This document shows positions 24,401-28,492 of a DNA stretch of 64,000 nucleotides, in pieces. The number at the start of each line of letters is the position of its first letter. Within the stretch, counting starts at the first letter, position 1. The notes under the pieces were generated by a model. That model saw only the letters and a list, made by a program, of their open reading frames with translations, did not search any database and was not told the DNA's origin. This DNA comes from Candidatus Versatilivorator sp. (GTDB lineage: Bacteria > Acidobacteriota > Terriglobia > Versatilivoradales > Versatilivoraceae): assembly GCA_965207735.1 (NCBI GenBank), contig OZ242296.1, forward strand, positions 2,112,001 to 2,176,000, given 5' to 3'. A program made the translations under genes and the position numbers.

Positions 24401-27400
24401 GTCATTTCAGGAGAGACGACCGACAGTCTGACAGTGAGTTGGAGCGAGCCGGACAACACGGGACCGGACATCACCGACTACGACGTGCAGTACCGGGAGA
24501 AGGACAGAGGGGGCTTCTGTGACGGGGGCCACGAGGGGCCGGGTCTCAGCTTGACGCTTTCCGACCTGGAACCGGGCACTGACTACGAGGTGCAGGTAAA
24601 AGCCAGAAACGATGAAGGGGCGAGTGACTGGTCGGCCTCGGGCGAGGGAATGACCGTCACGCCGCTGACGGTCATGATGGCGAGCGGGACCGAGTCTCCG
24701 GTGTCGGGGGCGTTCACGGTGCGGTTCAGTTTCTCCGAACCGGTGTCGGGGTTCAGCGGGAGCGACATCGATTCCGAGCGCGATCCTGAATGCACGGACG
24801 ATCTGAACAACACGGTCTTCTGCGAGCCGGGGATCGGGAGCCTGCAGACGGCCGACGACCGGGTTTACACCACGACGGTGACCCCCGAGACCGGTAGTGT
24901 GGCCCACAGCTATACGTTGACGCTGACGGTTCCGGGAGGCGCCGTCAGCTCGTTGGTAGGCAGCAAGCCGAACGAGAAGCCGGAGGAGCAGCTGGTGGTC
25001 CGGGTGTCGCCGCCGGGGGTCCCCGAGCCGATCTCGACTTTGAGTCTGAGAGCCAATGGGGCGAGCGGATCGATGAGGATGAGCTGGAACCGGCCGTCTG
25101 ACAACGGAGGCTCTCCCATCATCCGCTACGAGTACCGGTACGCGGCCACCGGGGAGGCGTGGAGCGAGTGGGAGAACGTGGGCGCGGGGTCGGGAGGGGT
25201 GACGGTGGGAGGCCTGATCAACGGCCGGGAATATGTCATCGAGGCGCGGGCGGTCAATGCCCTGGGCAAGGGGGGAGTTGAGACGGCGATGGCCACTCCG
25301 GTGGCTGGTGGCGGCAATGGTAGCGGTGGAGGAGGCGGAGGCGGAGGAGGAGGTGGTGGTGGCCTGCTGTTTGCGCCGGAGGCGCCGGCAGTCCTGACGG
25401 CGACGCCCGGGGACGGGACGGTGCTGTTGGCGTGGAGCCCGCCGGAAAGCGACGGGGGTTCTCCCATCCTGCGCTACGAGTACCGACTGAAAGAAGGCCT
25501 GGGCGAGTTCAGCGAGTGGACACCCATCCCGGACAGCGCTCCCGGGGAGGTCAACGCCTCCGGCTACACCCTCATGGGGCTTCTCAACGGGACGGTCTAT
25601 GCCTTGGAGCTGCGTGGGGTCAACCAGATCGGCAACGGGCGGGAGACGGAGGCGGTGGAGGCGGTGATGCCTCTGGACCCGGCCTATCGGTCGAACTTCC
25701 GGGCGGAGGACCTGGAGGGTGGAGAGGCCGGATTGGAGTGGACGCCGTTTGGAGGAAGCCGGCGGAGTCTGAAGGTGAGGTTTGGAGGGGGGCTGCGGTT
25801 TGAGGAGAGGGAGCTGGATGCAGCAGGGGAAGTGACGGCGACCCGCATGGGGAGCTACCGGTACCGCTACACCAGCCGGACGACGGGAGAGCTGAGCCTG
25901 GACTACGACGGGGGGGAGTCGTGCGAACTGCGGATGAGCTTCGGCGGAGTGGGAGAAGGCAGCTACAGCTACCGCTGCGGGGGCGGGTTGCAGGGACAGG
26001 GGAGCTTCCGGCTGAGCGAGCTGAACCGGCTGCCGGAGATCACCAGCCCGGGGCAGTTCGAGGTGGTGGAGAACCAGACGAAGGTAGTGCGGCTGGAGGC
26101 GGGGGACTCCGACGAGGAGGACGAGGTTGCCGGCTACGGGATCGCGGGAGGAGCGGACGGGGCGCTGTTTAGGGTAGTTGAGCAGACGGGAGAGCTGAGC
26201 TTCACGGAGGCGCCGGACTATGAGAGGCCTGCCGATGCGGTGAGCGCGGAGCCCGAAAGCCCTGCAGGAGACAACGAATACGTGGTGGTGGTGGAGGCGA
26301 GGAGCGGAGAGGGGGAGAGGGTGCGGAGGAGGAGCCGGACGATCCGGGTACGGGTGAGTGACGAGGAGGAGCCGCCGGGGGCGCCGCCGGCTCCGGAGGT
26401 GAGAGCAGAGGGCACCGACAGCCTGAAGGTGAGCTGGTCCGAGCCTGAGAACCGTGGGCCTGAGATTACCGGCTATGAGGTGCGCTACCGGGAGGAGGGA
26501 GAGGAAGGCTACCGGGATGGAGGGCACGAGGGGACGGGACTCATGTTGACGCTGACGGGCCTCGAGGAGGGGAGGCTCTACCGGGTGGAGGTGAGGGCCG
26601 TGAACGAAGAGGGGAGGGGTGAGTGGTCGCAGCCGGGGGAAGGCAGGACGGGGATGGAGGAGCCCGACGCAGAGGATCCGGCGGACTTCAGCGAGGAGGA
26701 CCTGGAGGGGAGGCGGGCGACCTTGAGGATCACGGGCGAAGAGGGGACCGCCAGACGCATTGAACTGCGGTTTGCAGAAGGCAACCGATTCGAGCAGATC
26801 GAGAGGGTGGAAGCGCAGGCGGCGATTCGGTCGGAGAGTGCGGACTCCCGATCGGAGAGCACCCCCTCCCGAACGGGCGCCTACACCTATGAGAGGACAG
26901 GTCCGCGCAAGGGAAGGCTGGGGCTGAACTACGATGACGGGAGTTCCTGTGAAGTTTCACTGGCCTTCACCGAGCTGGGCGAGGGCAGGTTCGTCTATGA
27001 CTGCGGGGAGGGGGAGGTGTCCGAAGGGAGCTTCCGGCTGACGACGGGGTCGCCGTTCGTTCCGGTGATCCTGTCCTCGGCGGGGCGGAACAACTCCTTT
27101 TTCACCTCGGAGCTGACGCTGACCAACCGTGGGATGGAAGAGGCCACGCTCCACTACATCTACACGGCCGAACGAGGCGGAGGGAGCGGGAGGGCTTCGG
27201 ACATACTCCCTGCAGGCAGCCAGAAGATCGAGACCGACGCCCTGGACTATCTGAGGGGTCTGGGGGTACCGATCCCCGCAACCGGGAACCGGATCGGGAC
27301 ATTGAGGGTGGAGGTCAAGCTGGGCTCCGAGGTGGAGGCGGTGGTGCGGACCACCACGCTGGTGCCTGAGGGGAGGGCGGGGCTGGCCTACCTGGGAGTA

Positions 27401-28492: not shown

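Follow-up and report, generated by a model that had tools for sequence, protein, structure and literature searches.

What is the shared end of two giant proteins for, when the proteins lie side by side on a bacterial chromosome and differ in their N-terminal halves? The stretch analysed here, hereafter the window, comprises 64,000 nucleotides from Candidatus Versatilivorator sp. (Acidobacteriota; assembly GCA_965207735.1, contig OZ242296.1, positions 2,112,001 to 2,176,000) and contains two giant open reading frames (ORFs), one of 3360 aa at 18410-28492 on the plus strand and one of 4845 aa at 32380-46917 on the minus strand. Both products close with the same block, which we call the module; we refer to the proteins as carriers and to the remainder of each as its passenger. 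How symbiont proteins built from LRR, NHL, cadherin and Fn3 domains reach a Gram-negative surface and stay there is poorly known. We propose, with slightly more confidence than doubt, that the module is a surface anchor that holds its passengers non-covalently and that is exported by Sec and then, in this family, likely by a type II secretion system (T2SS).

A preliminary description of the window held that both giant proteins end in the same C-terminal domain. We find that they do: the domain is 479 aa long and 417/479 residues (87%) are identical between the two copies. The length had been estimated correctly at about 480 aa, but the start proposed at 27040 is out of frame and the actual start is 27053. 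The A-B-A-B repeat claimed for its interior is borne out by profile comparison of the sub-units, in which half AB matches half CD with a probability of 100% (E 3e-45), A matches C at 99.4% and B matches D at 99.9%; A and B are also related to each other once distant members enter the profiles (96.7%). Six polar residues of the module are invariant (R99, R138, N140, Q185, D217 and D222).

No NCBIfam family and no Pfam family matches the module (the best Pfam model, YidB, at E 0.059 is below the cut-off), and there is no significant sequence match in the PDB; a profile of distant units reaches 2II7 weakly, at E 0.47. The AlphaFold2 (AF2) model of the whole module is compact, with a predicted local distance difference test score (pLDDT) of 93.5 and a predicted template modelling score (pTM) of 0.90. 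A structure search of 48,161 chains with a half-model returned 1NC7 as the best match (Z 11.5, root-mean-square deviation 3.7, 108 aligned residues), located on sandwich A, followed by 2II7 (Z 8.4), with the next row at 6.8; the fold of B, C and D is assigned by profile homology only. Foldseek searches with the whole and half models gave generic multi-sandwich matches with a TM-score under 0.3 and were set aside. The two matched structures, TM1070 and ASRT, belong to the ASRAH superfamily defined by De Souza, Iyer and Aravind in 2009, for which the available text of that paper describes a conserved Asn after strand 2, the TM1070 tetramer, and secreted dyads and tetrads (PMC2739507). The Asn that ends strand 2 recurs in the module as N25 (0.99), N259 (1.0) and N386 (0.97), with Asn or His at position 145 in B. 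At the start of strand 1, sandwich D has W368 (0.96), and Tyr, Phe or Thr occupy the equivalent places in B, A and C. The nearest named clusters in the Atlas are DUF5719/ASRT (0.94). Among distant units, 5/54 match DUF5719 and 2/54 match ASRT, weakly, and other dyad proteins exceed the DUF5719 cut-off in 3/5 carrier genomes; the window module itself has no ASRT or DUF5719 match above the Pfam cut-off. Judged by its modelled fold, the module is a tetrad of ASRAH units that stays below the cut-offs of the databases. The domain was thus rightly called unnamed as far as Pfam and NCBIfam go, but it is not wholly unrecognised, because its predicted fold is that of ASRAH/TM1070, whose dyads and tetrads were described in 2009. 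The family that lacks a database name is real and large; it is a variant of the ASRAH tetrad and not a new fold or class.

The module is repeated many times in the genome of the window (G000; closed, 5.26 Mb; other G numbers denote compared genomes and f numbers families of the phylum). Forty ORFs match it, 36 with a full module and a passenger and 4 as fragments, and in 40/40 the match ends at most 16 residues from the end of the ORF. All 18/18 genomes of the same family have matches (9-51 each; 17-51 per genome within the genus), while 0/12 genomes from other families of the class have any. Searched with a profile, 1.84 billion representatives yielded 2,982 hits at E up to 0.001. In the phylum, a half-unit profile matches 14/250 genomes, 13 of them multi-copy and spread over five families, where the units form dyads or tetrads that are mostly C-terminal. 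Tetrads are the form seen in f1 and f56, and both forms occur in f40, f67 and f79. A broader profile matches 55/250 genomes in 26/81 families; the unpublished genome G052 enters only this count and the GspK comparison below. From a motif alone, we take families f40, f56, f58, f67 and f79 to be Thermoanaerobaculia-like. Some matches come from genomes that bear the titles Acidimicrobiia, Latescibacterota, Chloroflexota and Aminicenantes. We excluded them from the range as likely misbinned contigs; they are covered to 70-97% by G000-like DNA at 74-87% identity.

We examined position in 262 homologues, namely the best 150 of the 2,982 profile hits and 112 from another search. The module is C-terminal in 227, right after the N-terminus in 27 and internal in 8. 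The preliminary description asked whether hits are always C-terminal; because 35/262 carry the module N-terminally or internally, it is not a strict C-terminal signal. Signal-like N-termini and transmembrane (TM) segments were called by a crude hydropathy rule. By this rule, a signal-like hydrophobic N-terminus opens 166/232 Met-starting homologues versus 24% of 1,816 control genes, and 25/38 G000 carriers versus 36% of controls; most G000 carriers that lack one begin mid-repeat and look, by eye, like broken genes. A further TM segment is rare (8/232 homologues, 1/38 G000 carriers). Together with the four-sandwich model and the lack of Pfam and NCBIfam hits, this agrees with the preliminary description, which saw no barrel end, sortase- or exosortase-type motif or TM anchor.

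Passengers were scanned in 29/34 non-window G000 carriers, five near-duplicates or fragments being left out. They include LRR (8/29) and NHL (5/29) proteins, arrays of Fn3 and cadherin, spondin-N, proteases of types S8, trypsin, M9 and M12B, and a sulfatase, with no hit for 4. The two carriers of the window share about 1,940 aa at 81% identity and, judged by these sequences, are a recent duplicate pair; since the shared stretch far exceeds the module, their likeness alone reflects recent duplication. The evidence for modularity is that unrelated passengers of other carriers share the module: among 36 carriers, 463/630 pairs have no common passenger sequence, and their modules are 37-99% identical. 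The family is hence lineage-expanded, mostly C-terminal, found on proteins with signal-peptide-like N-termini and joined to interchangeable passengers, all as first supposed. This pattern suggests a portable localisation module, and its positional freedom fits an anchor better than a signal of the type IX secretion system (T9SS) kind.

Two side observations concern position. In close relatives (for example P0001, P0009, P0010 and P0027), the module stands right behind the signal peptide and ahead of LRR passengers, whose own C-terminal domain is retained and is another conserved one. ASRAH-like dyads and tetrads of a second family are N-terminal on NHL, LRR and protease passengers (G000:C1:734684, 1527761, 5005134, 4007905, 4025663 and 1081442), and stand-alone dyad proteins occur too, e.g. 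G000:C1:3326494-3327360.

What might such an anchor hold on to? G000 has a complete T2SS operon, gspE-gspD, followed by two paralogues, S1 and S2, of about 570 aa each with hydrophobic N-termini and no Pfam family (G000:C1:2243645-2248326, minus strand; L187:3646-8327); they flank a conserved DUF1573 gene. Homologues of S1 are present in 15/18 family genomes; their N-termini vary and their C-termini are conserved. S1 directly follows gspE-gspD in G000, G015 and G018, and gspD lies upstream in 4 more genomes of the genus. In the available text on Pseudoalteromonas tunicata, slr4, the gene of a surface layer (S-layer) with p4 symmetry, lies downstream of a T2SS cluster (PMC7821379), and NpdA and VapA are further S-layers linked to a T2SS in the accessible part of a second report (PMC10765051). 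The C-terminus of S1 is near Slr4 clusters in the Atlas (0.90-0.92, low recognition). By analogy with these systems, S1 and S2 are probable S-layer proteins.

The single C-terminal sandwich of S1 appears to be distantly homologous to the sandwiches of the module, through a chain of profiles that leads from the S1 C-terminal domain (S1-CTD) to a bridging family (93%) and from there to B (97.8%) and A (92%). Complex prediction with four copies of S1 408-569 scored 0.85 against 0.00 for the best control, relative to a mark that 20/30 solved pairs and 1/23 single chains reach; the calibration used two copies only, so these counts are rough for four copies and for our own alignment. Contact agreement between runs is at least 74% and pLDDT at least 77. 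In the predicted ring, each copy meets two neighbours via different faces, with four-fold symmetry. We mapped 21/25 listed contact pairs of this ring on sandwiches A-D by alignment and scored them by direct-coupling analysis (DCA) of 405 sequences (effective number, Neff, 213 for 479 columns); unrestricted DCA of the module was too noisy to read. Two of the 12 ordered pairs of sandwiches, C-B and D-C, covary at the ring contacts (p 0.0002 each), both head-to-tail and both with the peak at zero shift. Conservation at the mapped positions also exceeds the average (0.74 vs 0.65, p 0.0007). Based on these data, the module is predicted to reuse the S1 ring contacts at interfaces C-B and D-C.

ASRAH units are found elsewhere in the envelope genes of this family. 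G000 has the envelope markers LpxC, one BamA and three secretins. Its only bamA is followed by a gene that we call X (G000:C1:2615010-2616758, minus strand; L181:13011-14759) and then by skp and lpxA. X encodes a signal peptide, a beta-propeller and a divergent ASRAH dyad in B-A order, and forms a subfamily paralogous to the module. The order bamA-X is kept in 14/14 genus genomes as well as in G014, G015 and G017, and X directly precedes skp in G301; full-length X was not found in G016 or G018, the latter also without a core bamA match. At 21 skp loci outside the family, bamA is directly upstream in 13, and one, in family f6, has a propeller without a dyad, a propeller-Ig-propeller gene in the place of X. 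From its sequence and neighbourhood, X is a candidate lineage-specific partner of the BAM complex. Just after ftsZ (G000:C1:400385-404302, plus strand) lies a gene for a matrixin, TIG and nidogen-like protein that ends in a B-A-B-A tetrad, and it is matched in all genus genomes. As the position of X in the bamA-skp operon and of the tetrad gene after ftsZ shows, core envelope genes of the family have incorporated ASRAH units.

Across the phylum, ASRAH-like dyads (broader profile) occur in 34/36 genomes with full-length GspK versus 21/214 others and, by family, in 13/13 versus 13/68, counts that take in related genomes, which are not independent. The GspK profile overlooked G000's own GspK and so can miss divergent ones. 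Short PF21687/PF03934 matches in 100-260-aa frames (28/65 genomes, and all matches of a further GspK search) were set aside as helix-hairpin-helix proteins and not GspK, and so was a weak partial match in G052. Under the narrow module profile there is no co-occurrence with S1, as 10/250 genomes are S1-positive and 0/14 module-positive genomes are among them; it appears only under the broader profile. Within about 10 kb downstream of gspD, S1-like single sandwiches lie in 9/18 further loci and dyads in 2 more, and dyad genes adjoin or lie near S1-like genes in G015, G225 and G159. Separately, short S1-like proteins (150-330 aa frames; L412-L427) occur near gspD in several other families and are candidates for minimal S-layer subunits or T2SS accessories. 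Three module-rich genomes without a GspK-type T2SS have Omp85 matches in frames of 1,800-2,400 aa (G107:C2, G175:C3 and G239:C23), possibly TamB-Omp85 fusions and candidates for an alternative export route.

The following mechanism would account for the repeat, the copy number and position, the lack of membrane anchors, the unrelated passengers, the envelope markers and the gene neighbourhoods observed above. Carriers would be exported by Sec, the tetrad would fold into a compact pseudo-four-fold body and, in this family, the protein would pass through the T2SS. The module would attach non-covalently to the outer surface, with the passenger projecting outward on Fn3/cadherin stalks. Binding to cell-surface sugars was proposed for the ASRAH dyads and tetrads of Chloroflexi amidases and actinobacterial lipoproteins (PMC2739507), in line with such an attachment. 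The tetrad may be a single-chain copy of an S1-type four-fold hub that grips the surface ligand of S1, be it lipopolysaccharide (LPS) or another glycan, or the S-layer itself. A more specific version, which we offer as speculation and regard as rather unlikely, is that the tetrad mimics the hub of a T2SS-exported p4 S-layer, rides its T2SS and plugs passengers into the lattice or its outer-membrane anchor, with the X dyad tying BAM to the same layer; if true, this would give Versatilivorator a platform on which to display dozens of proteases and eukaryote-like repeat proteins. An anchoring or S-layer-attachment role, as suggested in the preliminary description, is thus plausible and fits the evidence; the idea of a strict sorting signal fits less well. 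Its analogy to the T9SS C-terminal domain, taken strictly, is not supported, given the freedom of position and the absence of PorV (PF19572 matches 0/5 carrier genomes, with a positive Bacteroides control), and the uncharacterised secretion route that it implied is not required, since the genome has a complete T2SS.

Several results weigh against the anchor proposal and its link to S1. The fold, the S1 ring and the two shared interfaces are predictions, and the export route, ligand and location are inferences. Compared directly, S1-CTD matches A and B with probabilities of 6% and 2% in hhalign and is also not significant against C and D, and the bridging family was selected by a motif in common with S1. 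The S1 tetramer score may be owed to likeness with the solved TM1070 tetramer. Interface B-A and the ring-closing A-D show no covariation (p 0.26 and 0.44) in what is a shallow alignment at this Neff. Pfam Slr4 (PF19526) matches in 0/5 genomes at E up to 1, and S1 is without a match. The kinship among genomes qualifies the GspK counts, and the dyads of GspK-positive genomes are mostly of a different, distant and weakly matching subfamily. Finally, the closest sequence relatives of the module outside the family lie in 13 genomes from five other families, and these genomes have no S1-like match and no full-length GspK; three of them were checked and have two secretins each, a PilQ-type one and one in a simpler locus, neither in a gspJKL-type operon. 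Because the closest relatives thus occur in five families without detected S1 and GspK, the module needs neither S1 nor this T2SS to exist.

The distributions around gspD and bamA could also be read to mean that the module is no anchor but chiefly a tag, recognised by an export machine of the outer membrane, either the GspK-type T2SS or BamA with X. Such a tag would explain the strong C-terminal bias and flush end, the S1-like sandwiches (and, at two loci, dyads) downstream of gspD, the dyads in every one of the 13 families with full-length GspK as against 13/68 others, and the conserved place of X between bamA and skp (directly before skp in G301). We nevertheless judge it unlikely, as 35/262 homologues have the module at the N-terminus or inside, its closest relatives live without this T2SS and X, and family f6, which lacks the module, has a dyad-less propeller before skp. 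A conserved fold of 479 residues is also large for a tag. Chloroflexi and actinobacteria mostly have no outer membrane to cross, which counts against a tag of this kind. ASRAH tetrads occur in both according to the available text of the 2009 paper (PMC2739507).

Two further explanations accept binding and place the ligand elsewhere. The fusion of tetrads to peptidoglycan amidases in Chloroflexi, described in the same text (PMC2739507), would suit a module that retains its passengers in the periplasm by binding peptidoglycan, as would the paralogous dyad and tetrad genes in the bamA-skp-lpxA operon and just after ftsZ. This location is hard to reconcile with passengers 1,000-4,800 aa long that consist of cadherin, Fn3, LRR, NHL, collagenase and reprolysin domains or with the homologous sandwich that ends a probable S-layer protein, and we think it very improbable. 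Such domains are typical of extracellular proteins. Alternatively, the module could be an outward-facing lectin that, in the manner of a carbohydrate-binding module, directs released proteins to glycans of the host or the environment. The superfamily is predicted to bind sugars or small molecules (PMC2739507, available text), and the invariant polar residues and the expansion in the genus, whose genomes have 17-51 matches each, are in keeping with a lectin. Against this, several of those residues fall on predicted inter-sandwich contacts, and the module is kept in relatives of free-living size in five other genera and five other families with very different passengers. Because it is conserved across such relatives and passengers, a ligand of the cell itself fits better, and we consider the lectin improbable.

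The features of the window are collected in the table below; the starts of both carriers (ATG 18458 and ATG 46884) are our own choice. Upstream of carrier 1, a Spondin-N gene (16498-18380, plus strand) is what deletion has left of a carrier like the intact ones at G000:C1:318614 and 4918735, which it matches in three blocks of 88-95% identity; several other carriers are truncated too. The interval between the convergent carriers (28474-32190) contains fragments of transposases (DDE_Tnp_1_4) as well as a gene with a partial N6-methylase domain at its end. At 6-13215 (minus strand) are a type I polyketide synthase (KS-AT-DH-ER-KR-ACP), two B12 radical SAM genes and a reductase-sulfotransferase fusion, a region that presumably resembles the swf cluster of sponge symbionts. 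Ca. Versatilivorator itself is, we assume, a sponge symbiont.

Table. Carriers, shared block and module units in the window (positions in nucleotides of the window)
Feature	Position	Strand	Description
Carrier 1	18458..28492	+	Hydrophobic N-terminus, M12B reprolysin-like domain, Fn3, NHL propellers, SwmA-type repeats, cadherin and Fn3, module
Carrier 2	32380..46884	-	Hydrophobic N-terminus, SwmA-type repeats, motifs that we take to be subtilase-like (no Pfam match), GLUG, Calx-beta, cadherin and Fn3, module
Block common with carrier 2	22687..28491	+	5.8 kb, 84% DNA identity, longer than the module
Module of carrier 1	27053..28492	+	Predicted four-sandwich A-B-A-B module, ASRAH-like, stop codon included; sequence comparison, profile comparison, AF2 model, structure match
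Sandwich A	27053..27406	+	Residues 1-118; aligns with TM1070, Z 11.5
Sandwich B	27407..27754	+	Residues 119-234; conserved D217..D222 motif at end
Sandwich C	27755..28126	+	Residues 235-358; homologue of A
Sandwich D	28127..28489	+	Residues 359-479; homologue of B; protein stops right after the last strand
Module of carrier 2	32380..33819	-	Second copy, ends protein 2, 87% identical

The function of the ASRAH superfamily has been a matter of prediction since 2009. In each genome the module flags about 40 proteins as surface candidates (3.7% of this chromosome), and its sequence gives access to the surface proteome in several families of Acidobacteriota. If it is kin, as predicted, to the four-fold hub of an S-layer candidate, there would be a structural reason for ASRAH units coming in twos and fours, and two direct tests are opened, of binding to the S-layer or LPS and of T2SS dependence. 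Our literature searches (ASRAH/ASRT, DUF5719/TM1070, Slr4, S-layer/T2SS, sponge Acidobacteriota and SymProFold) gave no account of the module or of a link between ASRAH and S-layers, and none was found under the name Versatilivorator; the available text of PMC11410804 and PMC12175726 makes no link of ASRAH to a T2SS-adjacent S-layer candidate or the bamA operon. This link is what is new here relative to the literature searched.

Compared with known systems, the module shares with the ASRAH superfamily (TM1070, PDB 1NC7; ASRT, PDB 2II7; Pfam ASRT PF07100 and DUF5719 PF18986) the eight-stranded beta-sandwich, by prediction, the Asn closing strand 2, the dyads and tetrads on secreted proteins and the predicted sugar binding. 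It differs in falling below the Pfam cut-offs, in keeping the Trp at strand 1 only in sandwich D, and in its host, since the three families that the available text of PMC2739507 names do not include Acidobacteriota; that text also does not mention a T2SS-adjacent S-layer candidate or the bamA operon. Slr4, which resembles S1 and S2 and not the window module, is modelled as beta-helical, and the accessible text describes no tetrad-bearing passengers for it (PMC7821379). S1 and S2 have in common with Slr4 the signal peptide, the length of about 570 aa and the gene directly downstream of a T2SS cluster, and S1 the four-fold assembly, with p4 measured for Slr4 and C4 only predicted for S1-CTD; they lack a Pfam Slr4 match, with no lattice observed. 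The setting of the module is also its own among ASRAH proteins: the host is a diderm that has LPS and BamA, and about 40 copies per genome stand on passengers unrelated to each other. Like the T9SS C-terminal domain and the TIGR03437 domain of Solibacter, the module is rich in beta strands, has multiplied within its lineage and sits at the C-terminus of signal-peptide proteins that differ in their passengers, but it has no NCBIfam match to either set of models, is six times longer than the T9SS domain, is not strictly C-terminal and comes without PorV. The SLH, CWB2 and choline-binding anchors have three helical or alpha/beta units where the module has four beta-sandwiches in a diderm host, and we found no kinship in sequence or fold. 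What the module shares with them is that repeated units form one pseudo-symmetric body, which stands at either end of many unrelated exported proteins and is common to an S-layer protein.

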